Source: Octopus vulgaris | Taxonomy: Eukaryota | Reading direction: 5' to 3' | NCBI GenBank assembly: GCA_951406725.2 | Contig: OX597823.1 | Location: 100,316,001 to 100,380,000, forward strand | DNA length: 64,000 bases | In this document: one piece after another, positions 8,900-44,800 of the stretch | Position numbering within the stretch: position 1 is the first letter of the stretch | Layout of the letters: each line of letters opens with the position of its first letter | The notes under the pieces: generated by a model | Database searches by the model: none | The model's input: the letters and a program-made list of their open reading frames with translations, nothing else | Told to the model about the DNA's origin: nothing | Program-made: the position numbers and the translations under genes

Positions 8900-11800
8900 T
8901 ATCATCATCATCATCATCATGTAATGTCTTGGACGGTTTGATTGAAGACTGGCAAGCTAGTAGGCTGCACCAGGCTCCAATCTGATCTGGCAGTATTTCT
9001 ACATTGGATGCCCTTCCTAACACCAACCACTCTGAGAGTGTAGTGGGTGCTTTTTACATGCCACCGGTATGGGAGCCAGTCAGGTGGTATTGGCATCGAC
9101 CACGTTCTCAATCACAACATGTCTCCAGAGGTCTCAGTCTGTTGTCATTGCCTCTGTGAGGACCAAAGTTCGAAGGCCATGGTTTAATAATATAATAATA
9201 ATGAAATTATTGTATACAGTGATCAGGTGCACCACAACTTGTCAGAAAGTGCATATAAAGTACATGCAGTAATGTAAAAATGTCTGGAAAACGAACAATG
9301 TATGAGTCAGATACATGCTTGTGTGTGCATGGAGGGGAGAAAATCAGGTGTAGTGTTGGCAAATCTCAGAAAGCATGGAAGTTTTGAAGGATGCAGTGCT
9401 CCGACAACTAACAACTGATGCCAGCAGTTTGTTTCATGCTTCAGCAACTCTCAGCGTGAAAAAATGTTTCCTGAAGTCATGGGAACTGTGCTGTTTTCTG
9501 ACTTTGTAAATATGTCCACGGGTGTTAGATGGGTGGAGTTTGAAAAGGTGCTCAGAGTTATTGTTTGTACGATGGTTGATAATTTTATGGGTGTCTGCCA
9601 AGTCAGCTGCCAGACGTCAGAGTTTCAATGTGTCCATGCCCAGGAAGTAAGGCGTTCAGGATATGGCAAATGCCTGATGGAGGGTATTCTTTTGGTTGCA
9701 CGTCGCTGAACAGCTTCCAGACGATTGATATCCTGGGCAAGATAGGGGTTCAAGACCGGTGATGCAAATTCCAGGTGAGGTCTTACCATAGCTATATAAA
9801 GCCGCAGATAGATAGCCGGAGAGCGGCTCACAAAGGATTTGGTGAGTGATGCCAAGACACCCTCAGACTTCTTGACAATTTTAGCGATGTGTTTTGTCCA
9901 ACGCAAATCACTGTCGACAATAACACCCAGGTCACGTTCACATGAAGACTTTTTGAGACTAGTGTTGTGGAGGGAGTAGGTGGACGCTGGGTTTCTCCTC
10001 CCAAAATGCATGGTGGAACATTTGTCCACAGCCAGCTTGAGTTGCCAGTCCATGATCCACTGCTGCATTGTGTCCAGGTCTGCTTGCAATAGAGATCTAT
10101 AGTGTACAGGATTTGACCTCTTTATTTCGAGGTACAGCTTGATGTCATCTGCATATTTCAGCACTGTGGCATTCTTTAAGTTGGCATCTATGTCATTAAC
10201 ATATGCAACAAATAAAAGGGTGCCAAGAACAGATCCCTGTGGTACACCAGATGTCATCTCATAGGGCGAAGAGTGCTGTCCTAGAACTGTGACAACCTCT
10301 TTTCGGTTGAAAATAAAGGACTTCAACCAGTTATAGAGTTCATCTCTTACACCCAACGCAGAAAGCTTCACCATAAGTCTTTTGAGTGGCACAGAGTTAA
10401 AAGCCTTAGCAAAGTCAAGGTAAACAACATCCACCCAGGATCTGCGATCAGCGATTTGGGTAACGTCCTCAAGAAACTCGATGAGTTGATTACAGCAGCT
10501 GGAGTTAGGAATAAATCCGAATTGTGACGGCTGGATGAGGCTGTGAGACTTCCAGAAGTTCCAGAGGGTTTCTCTGATACAGGATTCCATCAGTTTGGCG
10601 ATGCAGCTAGTAAGACTGATGGGGCGATAGTTGACAGGCGATGTGCGGTCGCCTTTTTTGAACAGAGGGATGACACTGGCAGTTTTCCACTGTTCTGGAG
10701 TAACACCATTGTCAAGACAGAATTGGAAGAATAGAGAAAGTTGGCTTAGAAGAAAGTAGCCACCGCATTTGAGAAGTAGGTATGTAACACCATCGAGACC
10801 ATAAGAGGCATAATTGCGTTTATTCTTAAGGTGGCGTTGCAGCATTGCTGGTGTAAATTGCATAGTAGATATAGAGTCCGATGTCAGTGGTAATGAAGAT
10901 GGAACATTTTAGTCTTCGACAGTAAAGATGCCGGCATAGCATCCAGCAATGATTTCTTCAGGATTGCCAGTAATCTGTCCTGTGTGGGGATTGCGAAGGG
11001 GACCAACTGGAGAGTGGGGTCTCTGCTTTGAGTGCACATACTTCCAGAACACTTTGCTGTCAGGGTTAGCTGCAATGCGTTGTTCAAATTCAAGCACTGC
11101 CTTTTTTGTCACCTGCTTGAGGTGGTTGGCTGACCTATTGCGCTTTTTCCTGTTGCTCTCTGATTTGTGCAATTTGTATTCCTGTTCAGCATTACGGCAT
11201 TCTTTCCTGGCAAGTCGGACTGCTGCAGTCTCCCAAATTGCACTATTGGGTGGTTTTTTGTGCTTGCGTGGTACTGATGCTGCACATGCTGCCCATATTG
11301 AATTCAAAATGTTCTGGAGTATAGTGTCCACATCTCCAGAGGCATAAAATTCGCGCCAGTTTGGGCATTGCAGCTCAGTACAATAAGAGCTCCAGTTTGC
11401 TTTATTCCAGTCAAAGCGGGCAGTCTGAAGATGGTTGTGTTTTTTGTTACAACCAATCAGAGACAAGTCGGCCATGATCATGGAATGATCAGAGTCACCT
11501 AAAGGTTCTTCGGTAGTGACACTAATGATTGTTTCAGGAGAAGCGGTAAGTAGCAGATCCAAAGTGTTGTTACCCCTTGTGGGGGAGGTGGGACCAATTT
11601 GAATTCAGCACCAGTTCAAGGAAATCATCTGCACTTTGCGGCCAACGGAAGGCCTCCCAGTCAATCTCAGGGTAATTGAAGTCGCCCGCAATATACACAT
11701 ATGTGGCTGTTTTCATGGCAGCAGCTCTGAGGATATCAAAAAGCTGTGCGTTGGCAATAATTTGGAGGACGGTAAACAACTCCAAACAGAAGTGTTGACA

Positions 11801-12290
11801 TGGTCATGTGTATATTGCAGAAAAATACTTCCTGCTGAGATTGGTTCAAATCATCACAGGGGATTGCCGATAGATTTGATCAAATATAAATCATCACACC
11901 CCCTCCACGGCGATTAATGCGGTCTTTGTGGAACAGGTTGTTTACCACCTCATCCCATGCCTTCCTGGGTCTACCTCTTCCACGGGTTCCTTCCACTATT
12001 AGGGAGTGACACTTCTTCACACAGCTCTCCTGATCCATACAGCACATAACCATACCAGCGCAGTTGTCTCTATTGCACACCACATCTGATGCTTCTTATG
12101 TCCAACATTTCTCTCATGGTGCTTACACTGTCGTGTATGCACACTGACATTACACATCCAGCGGATCATACTAGTTTCATTTCTTTCAAGCCTACATATG
12201 TCCTCAGCAGTCACGGTCCATGTTTCACTACCATGTAACATAGCAGTTCACATACATGCATCACACAGTCTACCTTTCACTGTGAGCAAG
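8900..12290 (-). mobile_element. RTE-type LINE 3' copy split by an older CR1
   Basis: MLHGSETW...GRGRPRKAWDEVV at 11941-12290; continuation, 3' UTR and (GAT)n tail at 8900-9186. Confidence 0.75.
9187..11940 (-). mobile_element. Older, frameshifted, 5'-truncated CR1 LINE
   Basis: GDFN, GDSDH, GVPQGSVLG, YADD, VQRRATK; (TTA)n tail; GTTTA at both junctions. Confidence 0.9.
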
Positions 12291-15147: not shown

Positions 15148-15301
15148 TGTGTACAGTGCTCAGGTGCACTACAACTCATCTAAAGTGTATATATAATCAG
15201 GTGTAGTTTCGGCGGATTTCGGAAAGCATGAGGGCCTTAAAGGATGCAGTGTCATGGCAGTCAACAACTGACGCAGGCAGTTTATTCCATGCTTCAGCAA
15301 C
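15115..15301 (-). mobile_element. Short 3' fragment of the young CR1 family
   Basis: Near-identical to 24195-24366, with (TTA)n tail. Confidence 0.9.
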
Positions 15302-15614
15302 GTCCCATGTGGGTCAGCCACATCTAGGTGGCAAATATACTTCACGATTTCAACCATTATTTTGTTATAACTTTAATATTTCAAATATCTCTGCAAAATT
15401 CAAATGATCCTTTCATCAGGATCATTTAGCTTTCCATACTGGCATGGGTAAAATGGTCTTGACTGGAGATGGTAAGCCGGAGAGGTGCGCCAGGCTGCTA
15501 GGGTTTGGTTTCTATGGCTGGATGCCTTTCCTAATGCCAACCACTCCATAAGATGTCTTAAGTGTCAGTGTAATGTACAAAATTGTACATCTACAATCCT
15601 TCAGCTTTCGTTTC

Positions 15615-15645: not shown

Positions 15646-17884
15646 TGTGTACAGTGCTCAGGTGCACTACAACTCATCTAAAGTGTATATATAATCAGGT
15701 GTAGTTTCAGCGGATTTCGGAAAGCATGAGGGCCTTAAAAGATGCAGTGTCATGGCAGTCAACAACTGACGCAGGCAGTTTATTCCATGCTTCAGCAACT
15801 CTGAGCGTGAAAAAATGTTTCCGAAAGTCATGGGAGCTGTATTGTTTTCTGACTTTGTAGGCATGTCCACGTGTGTTAGACACATGGAGATCAAAAAGGT
15901 GTTCAGTGTTGTTGTTGGTGAGGTGGTTGATAACTTTGTGGGTGTTTACCAAGTCCGTCGCCAAACGCCGGAGCTTCAGTGAATCCATGCCCAGGGAAAC
16001 AAGGCGCTCAGAATATGGTAGGTGTCTGATGGAGGGTATGCGTTTGGTTGCACGTCTCTGGACAGATTCCAGGAGGTCAATGTTCTGTGCAAGATAGGGG
16101 TTCCAAACTGATGATGCGAATTCCAAGTGTGGTCGTACCATAGCTGTATACAGTTTTAAATAGATGGCTGGAGAGCGGCTAACAAAAGACCTGCTGAGTG
16201 ATGCCAAGACACCCTCGGCCTTCCTGACAATCTTAGAGATATGCTTTGACCAACGCAAATCACTGCTGACAGTGATGCCTAGGTCACGCTCACAAGAGGA
16301 TTTCTTGATATCAGTGTTGTGGAGGGAGTATGTGAACGCAGGGTTTTTTCTCCCAAAATGCATGGTGGTACACTTGTCCACAGCCAGTTTCAGTTGCCAG
16401 TCTGTGATCCATTGCTGCATTGTGTCTAGGTCTGATTGCAGGAAAGAGTTGTAGACATCAGGATCTGTCCTCTTGATTTCAAGGTACAGCTTGATGTCGT
16501 CTGCATATTTCAATACTGTGGCATTCTTTAAATTGGCATCTATGTCGTTAATGTATGCCACAAACAAGAGGGGACCAAGGACAGATCCCTGTGGTACACC
16601 CGATGACATCTCATATGGTGTAGAGTGCTGTCCTAGAACTGTGACTACCTCCTTTCGGCTGAGGATGAAGGATTTCAACAAGTTAAAAAGGTCATCCCCC
16701 ACACCCATTGCAGAGAGTTTCACCATAAGCCTTTTGTGTGGCACAGAGTTGAAAGCCTTAGCAAAGTCAAGGTAGACAACATCCACCCATGAGCCACTGT
16801 CAGTAATCTGAGTAATGTCCTCAAGGAACTCGACAAGCTGGTCACTGCAGCTGGAGTTAGGGACAAATCCATATTGTGAGGGTCGGATGAGACTGTGAGA
16901 GCTCCAGAAGTTCCAGAGTGTTTCTCTGACACACGATTCCATCAGTTTTGCAATACAGCTAGTGAGACTGACTGGGCGATAGTTGACAGGTGATGTGCGG
17001 TCGCCCTTTTTGAACAGAGGAATGACACTGGCAGTTTTCCACTGCTCCGGAGTAGCACCATTGTTGAGACAGTACTGGAAGAAAATAGAAAGCTGGTGTA
17101 AAAGGAAGTGCCTGCCACGTTTGAGAAGCAGGTATGTAACTCCATCGAGACCAGGGGAGGCATAGTTGCGCTTATTTTGAAGGTGACGTCGCAGCATTGC
17201 AGGTGTAAATTCCATAGTTGTTATGGAGTTTGCTGTTAGTGATGGTGAAGATGGTACATTTTGACTTTCAACAGTGAATATGTTTGCATAGCACTCGGCA
17301 ATGAGTTCTGCGCATTCCTTGGGGTCGTCAGTGATCTGGTTTGTGTGAGGGTTGCGAAGAGGGCCCACTGGAGAGTGAGGTCTCTGCTTTGAGTGCACAT
17401 ATTTCCAGAAAACCTTGCTGTCAGGATTGGCTGCTATGCACTGTTCAAATTCAAGCACTGCCTTTTTTGTCACCTGCTTGAGATGGTTGGAGGATTTATT
17501 CCGCTTCTTCCTGTTGGTGTCTGATTTATGCAACCTGTATTCCCGTTCAGCAGTCCGACGTTCCCTCCTGGCAAGTCGGACCGCTGAAGTTTCCCAAATT
17601 GCCCTTTTGGGGCGGTTCTTCTTTTTTTGTTTACGTGGCACTGATGCTGCACATGCTGCCCATATTGAGTCCAGGATACTCTGGAGTATAGTATTCACAT
17701 CTCCAGAGTTGTAGAATTCACGCCAGTTTGGGTGCTGTAGTTCAGTGTGGTACAGGTTCCAATCTGCTCTCTTCCAATCGAAGGAAGCAGATTGGAGATG
17801 GTTCAGGTTTTTGTTGCCCGCAAGAGCCAGATTGGCGATGATCATAGCATGATCAGAGTCACCTAGAGGTTCCTCCCTAGTGCA
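15617..17884 (-). mobile_element. 5'-truncated young CR1 copy (712-aa RT ORF)
   Basis: Reverse complement of about 22111-24366 with only a few substitutions. Confidence 0.95.
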
Positions 17885-18645: not shown

Positions 18646-19655
18646 ATAAAGCTATTAAAACTATTTGGAACTCTCACACATAAATCTGTCCGACTGGTTA
18701 TCTAGCCATCATTTTTTACTGCTTTCTTCTTTCCTTTCATAAAATTTCATTGCAGCTAAAAGTACCCCTAAAAATAAAAGATATAAAATAGTCAAGAACT
18801 GAGAAGAAACCAAAAGCAAAACAACTGTTATTGATTGGTAGACAGGAAGGAAGAAAAGTTTAAAATTGGGAGTCGGGTGGAATTAAAGTGGTCCCTTATT
18901 AAACTATTTTAACATTAATTATTAAACATATTAGTTTCTCATAAAATGGTGTGTATTTTAATTATTAGTTTAATGTTTACATCTTGACCGGGAAACGAAA
19001 ATCCCCGCCAAAATACTTGGAGTAAAAAAATGTTTAGGAAACGAAGAGGAAAAAAATAAAATGCGCGCAAAGCAATGCGAGAGGAGTTGGGAAAATTCAC
19101 AAAATCCGAGTTTTTCCTTCATAACTTTTAGGAAAATGTGTCTTTTTCAATGAAATTTTATATAAATACATTTTTTTCTACATATTATCTTTTGACCCTC
19201 GATGGCTTCAGCCATTTATGCTTGTCGTCAATTTGGTTAATTATAAAGCTATTCTATCTCGATGTTTCATTCCATTTTAGGCGATCTTTCGTTTGTAGTA
19301 GCACGTTTCCGTCGATGATTTCCGTAAAAAACTTTTATTTTTTTACATATGGGTTTGCGGGAATATTTGAAGTAATGAGAGCGAAAGAGACTAAGAGGAA
19401 GCGATTTTATGACGAGGGAATTTCTTTTTGAAGTCCCCGTGTGTGTGTTTGATGGGGTGTGGGAGACAGACAGTATGTTGTGTAAGTGAAGTGCTTCTGT
19501 TAGTGTGTGTGAAGAGACAGAGAGAGTAATGTGTGAAAGAGAGAGATAACTGAAATTTTTACTCGGTGTATGTGTATATGTATGTATGCATGTATGTGTG
19601 TGTGTGTATGTATGTATGTATGTATGGCCGATTCAGTGTACACTGAATCGGCCAT

Positions 19656-19688
<33 letters not shown>

Positions 19689-20283
19689 TACATTCAGACA
19701 TACATATACACATACACCGAGTAAATAATTACACTGAATCGGCCATACATACATACATACACACATACATAGATACATACACACATACATAGATACATAC
19801 ACACATCCCATTCCCTTATCAAAAATCTTGATTATTATTATTGAGTGAGAGAGCAGTGCATGTCATCAAAATGACACTGGGGTAAAATATACGAAGCCCA
19901 GTATACCCATCATACGACAGTAAGTACGTCCAAAATTTATAAAGCAGTGACATACATACATACATAGATACTTGTAGCACACATGTATATACGTGCAGAG
20001 TGAAAATAAATCACACTATTTAATGTGACGGACTACACTGCAAAAAAATCAAAAATTTCATTTCTGTTTACAAACTTTCTCCGTGTCTATACGCACAAAT
20101 ACTTTTATGTATACACACGCAATATTTAAGAAAAAAAGGAATATACACAAAAAAGAACGAAACATGTGTATATACACACACAATATTTAAGAACAAGGAA
20201 TATACACAAAAAAGAACGAATCAAAACAAATATTTTATATTTTACTTTTATCGTATTGTTGTTTACATTTTCTGTCTCTACGG

Positions 20284-20676
20284 ATGACCAGAACCAACAG
20301 AATCGCCATGGTGAAATCCATAGCGGCGTGCGATAAGACTGGTCGCTGCTCTAAAATAGAACACTGCCCAGAAAATCACACCTGCCACATCTGTACGGAA
20401 CCCGAAAATACGTTCCGTAATCGCTGGGTCGAATGTGGGACATGTCTCATCTCTGTCTGCCTCCAATGTGCCACGGACTTTCAGAAGATCCCAGGCCAAA
20501 AAAGAGCCATCATAATGCTATGATGGATAGACTCTGGAAGTTGGTTCAGCTTAAATCTTGGACTTTTCAGTGTCAGGCCTGCGTGCCTCCACAACCGACG
20601 ATTGTGTCTCCCACTGCCACTCCCGTGGAGGAGGCGGAACAGCAACAGCAGCAACAACAAAATCAACCACAACCAG

Positions 20677-20709
<33 letters not shown>

Positions 20710-21479
20710 TAGAGCAGCAGCAACAACAAAATCAACCACAACCAGAGCAGCAGCAACAACAAAATCAACCACAACCAGAGCAGCAGCAACAACAACAACA
20801 ACAACAAAATCAACCACAACCAGAGCAACAGCAGCAACAACAACAACACCAATTGACCAGTGCGGTTCTTGCAGAACTGCAACAATCGATCTGTGCTTTA
20901 AAAGGGGAAGTAGCAGGAATAAAAGCAACCATTCAGGTTGGACTCCACAATGAGGGGTCTTATCAGAATGCTCTGCTAAAGAACCTCCCTGTACCTGTAC
21001 CTCTTGTCGCATTTAAGACCGCGGATTCTGCCACCCATGAAGTCATTGCCATTGGGGTGCCAGAAGACATGGCTGATCTTCAGGCTTTTGCTGCCAACTC
21101 AGCCAAAGACCTAGGCTGCGTTCCCCCAACGGGTGCTATCCGCCTTGGACGACCTGGCCCAAAACCTAGGCTCATCAAGTTGTCTTTTACGGACCCCACT
21201 GAGGCAACCTCTTACCATCTGGCCTCAGTTAAAGCTGGGCGGGAAAATCGGACCACCTTCCGAACACGCCCAGGCTTACCGTCCGATGTACGTCCGAAGC
21301 TACGTGTAGTGGCTTCCCTGAATAGGAACTCAGCTCTACAGGAAAGCTTCAGTCTTCGGGAAGATGGACAAATCTGGAGATTTGTCAAGACTGCTGAAAC
21401 GTGGAAGAGAGATACCAGCTGGTCTGAGTGCTCTCTACCCACAATAACTAAAAAGACTACAGCAACTCAGGGAAACTAA
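20284..21479 (+). CDS. CR1 ORF1: PHD finger (split by a 1-nt frame break), polyQ tract, coiled coil, RRM-like domain
   Basis: CHIC...WVECGTC...CLQC (ORF 20284) plus WTFQCQAC (ORF 20433); VIAIGVPE and RLGRPG.KPRLIKL motifs. Confidence 0.8.
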
Positions 21480-21535
21480 GCCAGAACAACCTGCCATCCT
21501 CTACACACCATCATAAACTGCGAGCAGGGTACAAA

Positions 21536-24301
21536 TTGTTGTCCTTAAATGCTCGCAGTTTATGCAACAAAATACATTTGTTCAACGCCTACGTCAGAAG
21601 TGTTGACCCTGACTTCATCACTGTCACGGAAACATGGGCGCATTCCTTACTCTGTGATGGGGTTTTCAACATTACGGGGTACAACCTCTTCCGTAAGGAC
21701 CGCACTAACCGCCGTGGTGGTGGTGTGATGGTCTACGTTCGTTCAAATTTTTTGGTAATTCCTTGTGCCGATTTGAACGAATCACAAGAAGAAGTTTTTT
21801 TCTGTGACGTGCGTATGACCATGTCAACACTCCTGCTTGGCGTTGTTTATCGTCCCCCAAGTTACCATCGGGACACACAGCTTTGCAATGTCCTCCGAGC
21901 TGCTGCCAGGAAAACAGCCACTTATGTGTTTATTGCAGGCGATTTCAATCATCCTGAGATCGATTGGGAGACCTTCCATTGGCCACAGAGTGCAAACGAT
22001 TTTGTTGAGCTTGTGCTGGACTCAAACTGGTCACAAGTAGTCACCTCTCCAACAAGAGGCGACAACACCTTGGACCTGCTCTTCACCACAACTCCTGAAG
22101 CAGTTATCAATTGCACTAGGGAGGAACCTCTAGGTGACTCTGATCATGCTATGATCATCGCCAATCTGGCTCTTGCGGGCAACAAAAACCTGAACCATCT
22201 CCAATCTGCTTCCTTCGATTGGAAGAGAGCAGATTGGAACCTGTACCACACTGAACTACAGCACCCAAACTGGCGTGAATTCTACAACTCTGGAGATGTG
22301 AATACTATACTCCAGAGTATCCTGGACTCAATATGGGCAGCATGTGCAGCATCAGTGCCACGTAAACAAAAAAAGAAGAACCGCCCCAAAAGGGCAATTT
22401 GGGAAACTTCAGCGGTCCGACTTGCCAGGAGGGAACGTCGGACTGCTGAACGGGAATACAGGTTGCATAAATCAGACACCAACAGGAAGAAGCGGAATAA
22501 ATCCTCCAACCATCTCAAGCAGGTGACAAAAAAGGCAGTGCTTGAATTTGAACAGTGCATAGCAGCCAATCCTGACAGCAAGGTTTTCTGGAAATATGTG
22601 CACTCAAAGCAGAGACCTCACTCTCCAGTGGGCCCTCTTCGCAACCCTCACACAAACCAGATCACTGACGACCCCAAGGAATGCGCAGAACTCATTGCCG
22701 AGTGCTATGCAAACATATTCACTGTTGAAAGTCAAAATGTACCATCTTCACCATCACTAACAGCAAACTCCATAACAACTATGGAATTTACACCTGCAAT
22801 GCTGCGACGTCACCTTCAAAATAAGCGCAACTATGCCTCCCCTGGTCTCGATGGAGTTACATACCTGCTTCTCAAACGTGGCAGGCACTTCCTTTTACAC
22901 CAGCTTTCTATTTTCTTCCAGTACTGTCTCAACAATGGTGCTACTCCGGAGCAGTGGAAAACTGCCAGTGTCATTCCTCTGTTCAAAAAGGGCGACCGCA
23001 CATCACCTGTCAACTATCGCCCAGTCAGTCTCACTAGCTGTATTGCAAAACTGATGGAATCGTGTGTCAGAGAAACACTCTGGAACTTCTGGAGCTCTCA
23101 CAGTCTCATCCGACCCTCACAATATGGATTTGTCCCTAACTCCAGCTGCAGTGACCAGCTTGTCGAGTTCCTTGAGGACATTACTCAGATTACTGACAGT
23201 GGCTCATGGGTGGATGTTGTCTACCTTGACTTTGCTAAGGCTTTCAACTCTGTGCCACACAAAAGGCTTATGGTGAAACTCTCTGCAATGGGTGTGGGGG
23301 ATGACCTTTTTAACTGGTTGAAATCCTTCATCCTCAGCCGAAAGGAGGTAGTCACAGTTCTAGGACAGCACTCTACACCATATGAGATGTCATCGGGTGT
23401 ACCACAGGGATCTGTCCTTGGTCCCCTCTTGTTTGTGGCATACATTAACGACATAGATGCCAATTTAAAGAATGCCACAGTATTGAAATATGCAGACGAC
23501 ATCAAGCTGTACCTTGAAATCAAGAGGACAGATCCTGATGTCTACAACTCTTTCCTGCAATCAGACCTAGACACAATGCAGCAATGGATCACAGACTGGC
23601 AACTGAAACTGGCTGTGGACAAGTGTACCACCATGCATTTTGGGAGAAAAAACCCTGCGTTCACATACTCCCTCCACAACACTGATATCAAGAAATCCTC
23701 TTGTGAGCGTGACCTAGGCATCACTGTCAGCAGTGATTTGCGTTGGTCAAAGCATATCTCTAAGATTGTCAGGAAGGCCGAGGGTGTCTTGGCATCACTC
23801 AGCAGGTCTTTTGTTAGCCGCTCTCCAGCCATCTATATAAAACTGTATACAGCTATGGTACGACCACACTTGGAATTCGCATCATCAGTTTGGAACCCCT
23901 ATCTAGCACAGAACATTGACCTCCTGGAATCTGTCCAGAGACGTGCAACCAAACGCATACCCTCCATCAGACACCTACCATATTCTGAGCGCCTTGTTTC
24001 CCTGGGCATGGATTCACTGAAGCTCCGGCGTTTGGCGACGGACTTGGTAAACACCCACAAAGTTATCAACCACCTCACCAACAACAACACTGAACACCTT
24101 TTTGATCTCCATGTGTCTAACACACGTGGACATGCCTACAAAGTCAGAAAACAATACAGCTCCCATGACTTTCGGAAACATTTTTTCACGCTCAGAGTTG
24201 CTGAAGCATGGAATAAACTGCCTGCGTCAGTTGTTGACTGCCATGACACTGCATCTTTTAAGGCCCTCATGCTTTCCGAAATCCGCCAAAACTACACCTG
24301 A
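21536..24301 (+). CDS. CR1 ORF2: intact AP endonuclease and reverse transcriptase (921 aa, no AUG start)
   Basis: LNARS, TETW, YRPP, GDFN, SDH, YRPVSL, DFAKAF, GVPQGSVLGPLLF, YADD, TRGH, WNKLP; followed by a short 3' UTR and (TTA)n to 24366. Confidence 0.95.
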   Translation: MLSLNARSLCNKIHLFNAYVRSVDPDFITVTETWAHSLLCDGVFNITGYNLFRKDRTNRRGGGVMVYVRSNFLVIPCADLNESQEEVFFCDVRMTMSTLLLGVVYRPPSYHRDTQLCNVLRAAARKTATYVFIAGDFNHPEIDWETFHWPQSANDFVELVLDSNWSQVVTSPTRGDNTLDLLFTTTPEAVINCTREEPLGDSDHAMIIANLALAGNKNLNHLQSASFDWKRADWNLYHTELQHPNWREFYNSGDVNTILQSILDSIWAACAASVPRKQKKKNRPKRAIWETSAVRLARRERRTAEREYRLHKSDTNRKKRNKSSNHLKQVTKKAVLEFEQCIAANPDSKVFWKYVHSKQRPHSPVGPLRNPHTNQITDDPKECAELIAECYANIFTVESQNVPSSPSLTANSITTMEFTPAMLRRHLQNKRNYASPGLDGVTYLLLKRGRHFLLHQLSIFFQYCLNNGATPEQWKTASVIPLFKKGDRTSPVNYRPVSLTSCIAKLMESCVRETLWNFWSSHSLIRPSQYGFVPNSSCSDQLVEFLEDITQITDSGSWVDVVYLDFAKAFNSVPHKRLMVKLSAMGVGDDLFNWLKSFILSRKEVVTVLGQHSTPYEMSSGVPQGSVLGPLLFVAYINDIDANLKNATVLKYADDIKLYLEIKRTDPDVYNSFLQSDLDTMQQWITDWQLKLAVDKCTTMHFGRKNPAFTYSLHNTDIKKSSCERDLGITVSSDLRWSKHISKIVRKAEGVLASLSRSFVSRSPAIYIKLYTAMVRPHLEFASSVWNPYLAQNIDLLESVQRRATKRIPSIRHLPYSERLVSLGMDSLKLRRLATDLVNTHKVINHLTNNNTEHLFDLHVSNTRGHAYKVRKQYSSHDFRKHFFTLRVAEAWNKLPASVVDCHDTASFKALMLSEIRQNYT

Positions 24302-24939
24302 TTATATATACACTTTAGATGAGTTGTAGTGCACCTGAGCACTGTACACAATTATTATTATTATTATACATACACACACACATACATAGATACATACACA
24401 CACACACATACATGCATACATACATATACACATACACCGAGTAAAAAATTTCAGTTATCTCTCTCTTTCACACATTACTCTCTCTGTCTCTTCACACACA
24501 CTAACAGAAGCACTTCACTTACACAACATACTGTCTGTCTCCCACACCCCATCGAACACACACACACACACACACATGTACATCAATGCTTCGGTAACTT
24601 CAAAACAAATTCCCTCGTCATAAAATCGCTTCCTCTTAGTCTCTTTCGCTCTCATTACTTCAAATGTTCCCGCAAACCCATATGTAAAAAACTAAAAGTT
24701 TTTTACGGAAATCATCGACGGAAACGTGCTACTACAAACGAAAGATCGCCCCATTTTAAAATATGTAGTTTATTGAAAGTTGTGGAAAAAAAAGAAATCA
24801 AAGTAAATATAATACTGGAGTGCTACGTCATATTATGGCTACCATACAATAATTATAATGCGATTTCTTAATGTTTATACGAAATAATGAAATAACCTTA
24901 AAATTAAAATAATTCCTCATTTGTATAACCTCTCTATAC

Positions 24940-41800: not shown

Positions 41801-44800
41801 GATGCTCCAAGAGTGTAGCTGTTAGAATAAGAATAAAATGGGCAAAGTTCAGAGAGATTCTACCCCTGCTGGCAACAAAGGGCCTCTCCCTCAGAGTGAA
41901 AGGCAGACTGTATGATGCCTGTGTAGAAACAGCCATGCTACACTGCAGTGAAACATGGGCTGTGACAGCCGAGGACATGCATAGGCTTGAAAGAAATGAA
42001 GCCAGTGTGTTGGATGTGCAATGTCAGTGTGCATGTACGACAGAGTGTAAGCATCTTGAGAGAAAAGTTAGGCATAAGAGGCATCAGATATGGTGTGCAA
42101 GAGAGACGACTGCACTGGTATGGTAATGTGATGTGTATGGACGACAACAGCTGTGTAAAGAAGTGCCAATCTCTGTGGAGGCAACCTGTGGTAGAGGTAG
42201 ACCCAGGAAGACATGGGAAGGGCTTCACAGAGACAATGACTAGTGACCAAGACCTTTGATACATGCTGTGCTTGAGAAGACCTGTCAAGCCAAGTGAAAT
42301 CATAGACATGGCCAATGCTGGTGTCACGTAACTAGCATCTGCTGTGCCAGTGGCATATAAAAAGCACCTTTCAAGCATTGGGCCTCATGGAGGTAAGTGA
42401 AAAGCACCTTTTGAGTATTGGGCCTCATGGATGAATAACCAAGACTTTTGGCATTATGCCGTGCTTGAGAAGACCCATCAAACCAAGTAAGATCACATTT
42501 GTGGCAGACCCACCAAGCCAAGTAGAATTGTAGCTGTGCCGATGGCATGTAAAAGCACCTATTACACTCTTGGAGTGGTTGGTGTTAGGAAGGACATCCA
42601 GCTGTAGAAACTATGCCAAATCAGACTGGAGTTTGGTGCAGCCTTCCAGCTTACCAGCCCTGGTCAAACCATCCAATCCATGCCAGCATGGACAACAGAC
42701 ATTAAATGATGTTAAAATTTTCTTTCAAAATTTTATCATCATTTTAAAACAGGGAATTTATATCATAAAACCAGAGGCTGTTTCCAGATGATCGGTATCA
42801 AAAGGATTAAGAGATACATAAAAACCAGTCTCTCCTCATCACACAAAATGATGAATTACAAACATATAAATACTTTACAAATGACTGCTCAGTAACTTAG
42901 TATTTTATCAGGTTATCAATAAATTTTACTTTTATTACATCAAACAATGAGTGAAAGAGAGAGAAAACCTGCAGTGGTATGCATGACAAACAAAATTAGA
43001 ACATCATGAAGAAGCCTACCTGGCGATAATTCCTTCGGTCTAAAGCCATTCTCTGGTTCCAGAAGTGCTTAAAAAATGGTGGCAAAATTTCCTCTTTGAT
43101 GTATTGGGGTTCCACACCATCCGTAGCACAACACTGCTTCACTACCTAGCAATTTCAATAATAATTCAAATATTATTAAATAAAGCAAAAATTAACAACA
43201 AAGATACTAACAGTTATATGACATTTCTTTATTACTGACATAGAGTCAAGAAACTTACAAACTGAGAAACAAAAATTTGAATTCATAGTTAAGATATTTC
43301 TTTCTACCATAAGCACAAGGCTTTAAATTTTGTGAGGAGGGGCTAGTTGAGTACATTGACTCCAGTGATCAACTGGTACTTACTTTATGAACCCCAAAAC
43401 AATGAAGTGCAAAGTTGACCTCAGTGAGAGTTGAACCCAGAACTATGTTTACCAACCTTTAACACAATCTTTTTCATTTCTTCATCTGGAGACTGAAATT
43501 CTCGAATGAGGATTAACATCACTTCTCTGGTGTAGTAGTTGGCGTATTCAGCATCCATCAATGGAATAAGATAACCAATGGCTTTCAAAAAGGCAGCTAG
43601 ACCCTGTCAATCACACAACCAGCAGAGAATTGGCTTAGAAAATAACATCAAGTTAACAAAAAAAACAAAACAAGATAATCATTATCATCAACAGTTCACA
43701 GCTGTTTTCCATGCTGGCATGGACTGGACAGTTTGACAGGAATATGTCAGAGAATTGCATTGGGTTCCAATGTCTGTTTTGCCTGGAGGCTCTACCTAAT
43801 GACAAAAATATACAAGATAATCTGTCAACAAAACAATTCCTTCGGAAACATTTTTTCATGCTAAGAGTTGCTGAAGTATGGAACAAACTGCTGGCATCAG
43901 TTGTTAGTTGCCGGAGCACTGCATCCTTCAAAATTTCCATGCTTTCTGAGATTCGCCAACACTACACCTGATTTTCTCCCCTCCATACACATGCAAGCAT
44001 CTATCTGACTCATACACTGTTCACTTCCCAGACATTTGTACATTACTACATATTCCTTATATGCACTTTTGAAAAGTTATGGTGCACCTGAGCACTGTAT
44101 ACAATAATTTCATTATTATTATATTATTAATAAATATCTTTAGCAATCATCTCGCTTAAATATGACGCCTTATACAGCTGTTTGGCTCAAGGATGCCAAA
44201 CATTTCACATGTCATCGTCATCATCATCGTTTAGCGTCCGCTTTCCACGCTGGCATGGGTTGGACAGTTCAACTGGGGTCTGGGAAGCCAGAAGGCTGCA
44301 CCAGGCCCAGTCTGATCTGGTAATGTTTCTACGGCTGGATGCCCTTCCTAATGCCAACCACTCCATGTGTAGTGGGTGCTTTTTACGTGCCACCGGCACA
44401 GGTGCCAGACGAGGCTAGCAAACGGCCACAATCGGATGGTGCTTTTTACATGCCACCGGCACGGAGGCCAGTTGGGGCGGCGCTGGCAACAGCCACGTTC
44501 GGATGGTTCTCTTATCTGCCACCGGCACTTTTATCACAGCTGCAATTTCCATTGATGTTGATCGATTTTGATTTTGATTTTCATTTGCCTCAACAGATCT
44601 TCACAAGTAGAGTTTTGTGTCCCAAGAAGGAAAGGTATGCATAAGTGGACTGAGGCCACGGATTATGGTCTCACTTGTCCTGCCAGGTCTTCTCACGCAC
44701 CGCATACTTCCAAAGGTCTCGGTCTCTAGTCATTTCCTCGGTGAGACCTAAAGTTTGAAGGTTGTGCTTCACCACCTTGTCCCAGGTTTTCCTGGGTCTA

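Follow-up and report, generated by a model that had tools for sequence, protein, structure and literature searches.

A conserved in-phase GGGAAAC heptamer at the ORF1-ORF2 junction of an octopus CR1-like LINE and its predicted role in -1 frameshifting

How might a LINE (long interspersed nuclear element) produce its polymerase when the reading frame for it lacks a suitable AUG? A stretch of 64,000 nucleotides of Octopus vulgaris (assembly GCA_951406725.2, contig OX597823.1, positions 100,316,001 to 100,380,000 of the forward strand), here called the window, contains a young, APE-type retrotransposon without long terminal repeats (LTRs), whose first open reading frame (ORF1) ends on a heptamer that we predict to direct -1 frameshifting into ORF2. 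The element has the attributes of its type: an ORF1, an ORF2 encoding an APE endonuclease and then a reverse transcriptase, a simple-repeat tail at the 3' end, and dispersed 5'-truncated copies. All 40 scored matches, which are copies within the 2.8-Gb genome, are about 100% identical across 21200-21800. Identity with other copies begins at about 19914, indicating that the 5' untranslated region (UTR) of the window copy is truncated. We take the element to be CR1-like from its motifs rather than from a tree. Its features, in window coordinates, are as follows.

19914..24367, + strand: young LINE copy of subfamily A1, 5' UTR truncated, (ATT)n tail at its end; delimited by shared identity and direct reading.
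20284..21479, + strand: ORF1, with a Cys-rich N-terminus, Gln-rich repeats and a conserved C-terminal domain, ending ...TQGN before the stop; from reading frames and homolog alignment.
20498..20503, + strand: A-run with a private one-base loss that splits ORF1; from comparison with other copies.
21452..24301, + strand: ORF2 frame, APE endonuclease and reverse transcriptase by Pfam; 941 codons from the predicted shift.
21470..21476, + strand: putative slippery heptamer G GGA AAC, in the ORF1 phase X XXY YYZ; invariant in 7 of 7 lineage representatives.
21477..21479, + strand: ORF1 stop directly 3' of the heptamer (TAG in the relative L151); read from the sequence.
21476..21529, + strand: linker in the -1 frame from shift site to endonuclease, LSQNNL...RAG, open in the 7 representatives.
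21484..21498, + strand: 5' arm of a candidate long-range stem, GAAC + GCCATC, 7 nt after the heptamer; from folding.
21512..21564, + strand: strong hairpin, -28.2 kcal/mol, z -7.84, with 0 of 200 shuffles as good.
21727..21740, + strand: 3' arm of the candidate long-range stem, GATGGT + GTTC, holding AUG 21728; from folding.

An earlier note, made from the letters of this DNA alone, had read the end of ORF1 as CAG GGA AAC TAA with an in-phase G GGA AAC, and the -1 frame as open into ORF2. Both readings hold: GGGAAAC occupies 21470-21476, TAA follows at 21477-21479, and the -1 frame runs without a stop from 21452 to 24301 (949 codons). It matches PF03372 (ORF residues 31-232), PF14529 and the reverse transcriptase family PF00078. 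The first in-frame AUG of ORF2 is at 21728, a position that the note gave slightly wrongly as about 21727, and it does lie beyond LNARS and TETW as claimed there, the N of NARS being at 21548 and the E of TETW at 21629. We presume from L1 and APE1 that NARS and TETW have a catalytic role. AUG 21728 is ORF residue 93, 60 codons past the NARS asparagine, and four out-of-frame AUGs (21549, 21562, 21634 and 21657) lie between the stop and this position. ORF1 and ORF2 overlap, with no spacer between them and the first AUG within the endonuclease, which is not the layout of L1-type reinitiation, nor is there a UAAUG stop-start of the SART1 type, the letter after the stop being G, A or C with no AUG. 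Of the 6,747 stop triplets on the two strands of the window, 47 have a canonical heptamer in front of them (about 0.7%), and only this stop has GGGAAAC there.

In the family alignment that the earlier note had suggested, six own-genome subfamilies (labelled A1, A2, A3, D, B2 and B1) and L151, a locus on a metagenome contig with 59% endonuclease identity, all retain an in-phase heptamer with the stop directly after it and an open -1 frame, while the flanks diverge. No stretch of invariant columns across these seven representatives is longer than the heptamer plus the following TA. The -1 frame opens 2-14 codons upstream of the heptamer, with no AUG in that stretch, and is open from the heptamer into ORF2 in all seven; the heptamer-to-NARS distance is 75 or 78 nt throughout, and the linker sequence of L151 is unrelated to the others. 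L151 ends its ORF1 with CAG GGA AAC TAG and has the same overlap, and none of the six own-genome representatives has an in-frame AUG before NARS. The ORF1 tail shows length changes, and the codon before the heptamer is CAG, CTG, GTG, ATG or TTG (Gln, Leu, Val, Met or Leu), its final G alone being fixed; because this codon varies yet always ends in G, constraint on the ORF1 protein fails to explain the fixed letter. When A1, B1 and L151 are compared, the heptamer is identical at 7 of 7 positions, against 5-15 of 30 in the ungapped upstream flanks and 12-26 of 45 downstream, and endonuclease fourfold sites are identical at 36/74, 18/47 and 13/49 (27-49%).

The wider survey of genomic copies gives counts of intact sites, although such counts mirror ancestry rather than selection and the evidence lies in the comparison of lineages. 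A second subfamily, about 73% identical over the junction, keeps GGGAAACTAA and has a different ORF1 tail, and GGGAAACTAA followed by the NARS codons 40-70 nt on has 232 matches in the genome and none in a reversed control. Copies picked by their ORF2 side (120 loci, 4 of them truncated and 9 without a motif match) gave 62 distinct junction-spanning sequences, of which 59 carry GGGAAACTAA and three differ by single-letter changes. Older copies, mostly picked by their ORF1 side, are intact in 28 of 33 cases (35 further stretches, 33 spanning), the five exceptions again being single-letter changes. Three foreign endonuclease queries against the genome returned, among the loci inspected, these subfamilies only. 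As judged from sequence comparison, with one outside lineage at the DNA level, the heptamer is conserved beyond its flanks and beyond any amino-acid need.

In the light of this comparison, which supports the fusion of ORF1p and ORF2p suggested in the earlier note, we put the probability at roughly 0.7 that -1 frameshifting on the conserved G GGA AAC gives a minor ORF1p-ORF2p product. Most ribosomes would halt at UAA and release ORF1p, and a small share would slip from GGA AAC to GGG AAA, read CUA next and continue for 941 codons, giving a fusion of about 1,340 amino acids (aa) with the junction ...TQGN-LSQNNL... (or TQGK). Such a shift would set a low ORF2p:ORF1p ratio and would tie the polymerase in cis to the ORF1p coat, as in Gag-Pol. 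The efficiency is probably low, and the stop codon or the long-range stem 7 nt downstream may help. G_GGA_AAC is listed with the heptamers that shift most readily on mammalian ribosomes, PA-X illustrates that a low-level shift without a stimulator can matter (PMC5009743), and very little ORF2p may be enough (PMC3894237).

Points from the sampling, from more distant relatives and from RNA structure weigh against this reading. The own-genome subfamilies, about 73-95% alike, are kin and do not count as independent. Of the 59 intact copies, about 13 are members of a passenger lineage that has an additional G ahead of the heptamer. In L151, the single outside lineage at the DNA level, an AUG in frame with ORF2 lies two codons upstream of the NARS asparagine; initiation at this AUG would probably clip the first strand of the endonuclease. 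Among the 34 metagenome loci with an upstream frame of at least 150 codons, 24 have ORF2 in a +1 overlap, and the three distant loci with a -1 overlap have no heptamer; the rest comprise one in -1 with a gap, five in the same frame, and one that is the broken 5' part of L151. There are 79 metagenome loci besides L151, all of them at a greater distance (26-45%). The predicted -1 site, as far as these sequences go, marks the lineage of the window LINE and not all of its relatives. A search of genome contigs returned five distant fragments, the viral contigs searched gave no match, and no fused ORF1-ORF2 protein was present among 7,999 database candidates of 710-2025 aa, which is a weak test.

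The structural points concern what a stimulator should look like. Most 3' stimulators start 5-9 nt past the site, a minority 12-15 nt (PMC5009743), and in neither A nor B does local folding give a structure at the usual 5-9 nt. The earlier note had seen only a weak stem, which does not stand: the pairing of cctgc with gcagg is at shuffle level (z 0.01), and the strong hairpin at 21512-21564 had been overlooked. This hairpin begins 35 nt 3' of the heptamer and is strong in subfamily A only, with z about -1 in B and -0.3 to -1.4 in L151. The consensus fold of 15 copies from this genome retains a 7-bp core of it, and Rfam gave only sub-threshold hairpin matches. We rejected it as a canonical stimulator: it is too distant, its strength is not kept, and among the 54-nt windows of the element it ranks only second in stability. 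The most stable such fold (-29.3 kcal/mol) is at 22398-22460, in ORF2 between the endonuclease and the reverse transcriptase.

A long-range stem starting at +8 is predicted in the window copy and in most own-genome copies tried, when 293 nt are folded from the site. It is present in the consensus fold of 15 copies, such a stem occurring in 4 of 113 control windows, and its 5' letters vary less than their linker neighbours (1/10 against 20/40, Fisher p 0.03). In that alignment, 96.7% of cells pair, with one compensatory change only. The covariation is not significant (140 of 500 shuffles equal it), 3 of the 15 rows break one of the pairs, and no such stem is predicted in L151. Having been spotted after the fact, the stem is a candidate stimulator and not evidence for the shift. 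Pairing of the shift site with the 3' end of the element is no better than in shuffles in 7 of 7 copies having that end (p 0.26-0.97).

Could ORF2p be made separately instead? The main rival, given the unconventional initiation proposed for L1, is termination-reinitiation or internal initiation at a non-AUG codon of the linker; the heptamer would then be part of a termination/reinitiation signal, and the hairpin would hold the 40S subunit on a near-cognate codon. SART1 and L1 are described as reinitiating (PMC5972666), and AUG-independent initiation is described for L1 (PMC5009743). In-frame CTG or TTG codons are present at 21491, 21518, 21536 and 21539; CTG 21518 is kept in the own-genome subfamilies, whereas CTG 21491, with A at -3 and placed 18 nt ahead of the hairpin, has become CAG in subfamily B. 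L151 has its AUG just before NARS, yet its linker has no CTG, GTG or TTG, and no near-cognate start is common to it and the octopus copies. The junction has neither a stop-start overlap nor an AUG near the stop. This mode of initiation also does not predict the fixity of exactly seven letters in the pattern X XXY YYZ, three of them at positions silent in ORF1, and we consider it unlikely. That the letters are kept for some other cause, such as a C-terminal Gly-Asn motif of ORF1p or an RNA or DNA signal, with the slippery pattern incidental, seems distinctly improbable. Every ORF1 homolog examined does end in Gly-Asn, including P0026, a homolog (57%) from another source, available as a protein sequence, whose C-terminus is SVGN, and the sample holds few independent lineages. 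A need for Gly-Asn, however, would constrain neither the G ahead of these two codons nor their third positions, and all three letters are nevertheless the same in 7 of 7 representatives, among which the preceding residue has four identities; the chance of all three staying in A, B and L151 is about 0.01, a rough product of silent-site identities, and the translation of ORF2 would be left unexplained.

It is very improbable that ORF2p begins at AUG 21728, or that a spliced or slipped transcript brings ORF2 into frame. AUG 21728 comes first among the in-frame AUGs and is conserved, but a start there would remove ORF residues 31-92 from the PF03372 match, NARS and TETW included. Contigs were available from seven covering runs (by our guesses, five of RNA and one of DNA, the seventh being unassigned; an eighth run lacked coverage); single contigs bridge the junction, with no splice joint and no indel at the heptamer, which weakly disfavours splicing or slippage since contigs drop rare forms. 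An extra-G sublineage does exist as DNA, and we considered it as a natural ORF1-ORF2 fusion. That candidate was rejected: its 13 copies have a 5' junction in common, behind an RTE-like LINE, so that the sublineage is a 5'-truncated passenger, out of frame with that LINE and without an AUG. The composite repeat itself, an RTE-like LINE joined at one common point to a 5'-truncated subfamily B copy with the extra G in the heptamer run, has at least 13 dispersed copies about 98% alike (loci L060, L063, L064, L066-L069, L071, L078, L079, L100, L101 and L117).

Frameshifting on the heptamer would have its closest parallel in retroviral and LTR gag-pol cassettes, of which SRV-1 and PEG10 are examples with G_GGA_AAC. 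As in that heptamer class (PMC5009743), the same heptamer in the same phase ends a structural, RNA-binding ORF and is followed by an AUG-less polymerase ORF in -1. Unlike those cassettes, the window LINE is a non-LTR element, has no protease to cut a fusion, has its stop directly after the heptamer, and has no pseudoknot or hairpin found at 5-9 nt. In the Dictyostelium elements TRE5-A and TRE3-A, a -1 frameshift is stated in a figure legend to be required for ORF2 (PMC5911963). These are also APE-type, but amoebal and tRNA-gene-targeting, and the available text of that paper gives neither a heptamer nor an experiment. Drosophila R1B has two ORFs with a 14-59 bp overlap in the -1 frame (PMC2718515); it belongs to the R1 clade, and the text available names no slippery site or mechanism. 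For Paramecium LINEs, +1 frameshifting or reinitiation has been suggested (PMC5405496). SART1, with UAAUG coupling and structure downstream of the junction, and mammalian L1, with unconventional reinitiation, resemble the window LINE in having a bicistronic LINE RNA and low ORF2 output, but each of them makes a separate ORF2p and has an AUG at the junction or close to it, whereas in the window LINE stop and start do not overlap, there is no spacer, and 250 nt pass before ORF2 has an AUG. Frameshifting in -1 is already stated for TRE5-A and TRE3-A, and none was found in the literature for CR1-type animal LINEs; our search returned no report of a slippery site in them, although its thin coverage of subscription papers and repeat-database reports means that absence from print is not shown.

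Reviews call ORF2 translation in LINEs an open question (PMC3894237; PMC5009743). The tested LINE cases point to reinitiation, and frameshifting would be a third route, one open to direct test in this animal LINE, which is young and high in copy number, has many open ORF2 frames and carries a conserved shift site of the retrovirus type. If it is true, ORF2p would be a Gag-Pol-like fusion, models of the particle, its stoichiometry and cis preference would change, and gene calls that begin at the first AUG would truncate the endonuclease. A broader generalization, possible but doubtful, is that such a fusion is common in the CR1 group of animal LINEs, whose polymerase would then be part of an uncleaved ORF1p-ORF2p product of programmed frameshifting. 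The shift would be -1 on G GGA AAC in the lineage of the window LINE, with the long-range stem helping and also hiding the internal AUG of ORF2, and +1 on a PA-X-like UUU C site in a second group among its relatives.

Among the +1-overlap relatives, 21 of 24 have an in-phase UUU C 6-27 nt upstream of the ORF1 stop, a count without a background control (L157, L160, L164, L167, L169, L175, L178, L179, L181, L183, L184, L189, L193, L197, L201-L203, L210-L212 and L228). The contexts are AGG UUU CAG/CUG/CCG, CCU UUU CGU, CCU UUU CAA and CCY UUU CCY, resembling the +1 shift site UCC_UUU_CGU. They represent about five sequence families, with many loci redundant and several having an AUG before NARS. 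The other three (L166, L171 and L220) have GGG AGG CAY in common. The distant homologs P0007 and P0018 have a 2A-like GDIEVNPGP ahead of the endonuclease, with PHD fingers in addition in the P0018 polypeptide, so this endonuclease can carry N-terminal extensions. A sequence search of the PDB gave no match for the endonuclease of the window LINE. The ESM Atlas returned only matches under 0.9.

ORF1p is 402 aa in intact copies and is split in the window copy, where the A-run at 20498-20503 has six letters, compared with seven in all 16 other copies that span it. ORF1 has no significant Pfam match. A Cys/His pattern, a candidate PHD finger, is kept by eye in the ORF1 of A, B and P0026, with no match to a Pfam PHD family, and the ORF1 of L151 has no Cys-rich N-terminus. 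The Gln-rich tandem repeats of ORF1 (20630-20850) differ in length among near-identical copies, and other low-complexity repeats take their place in subfamily B and P0026.

The window holds further copies of the family. Those at 15698-17884 (- strand), 15200-15310 (- strand) and 43810-43968 (+ strand) are 5'-truncated, one having 99.6% protein identity. A 5'-truncated subfamily B copy (79% aa) at 9347-11939 (- strand) lies directly behind RTE-like sequence (about 11950-12290), with a junction different from that of the 13-copy composite. Just upstream of the LINE, direct reading of 19560-19800 reveals an inverted duplication of a microsatellite-rich repeat, with its centre near 19640.

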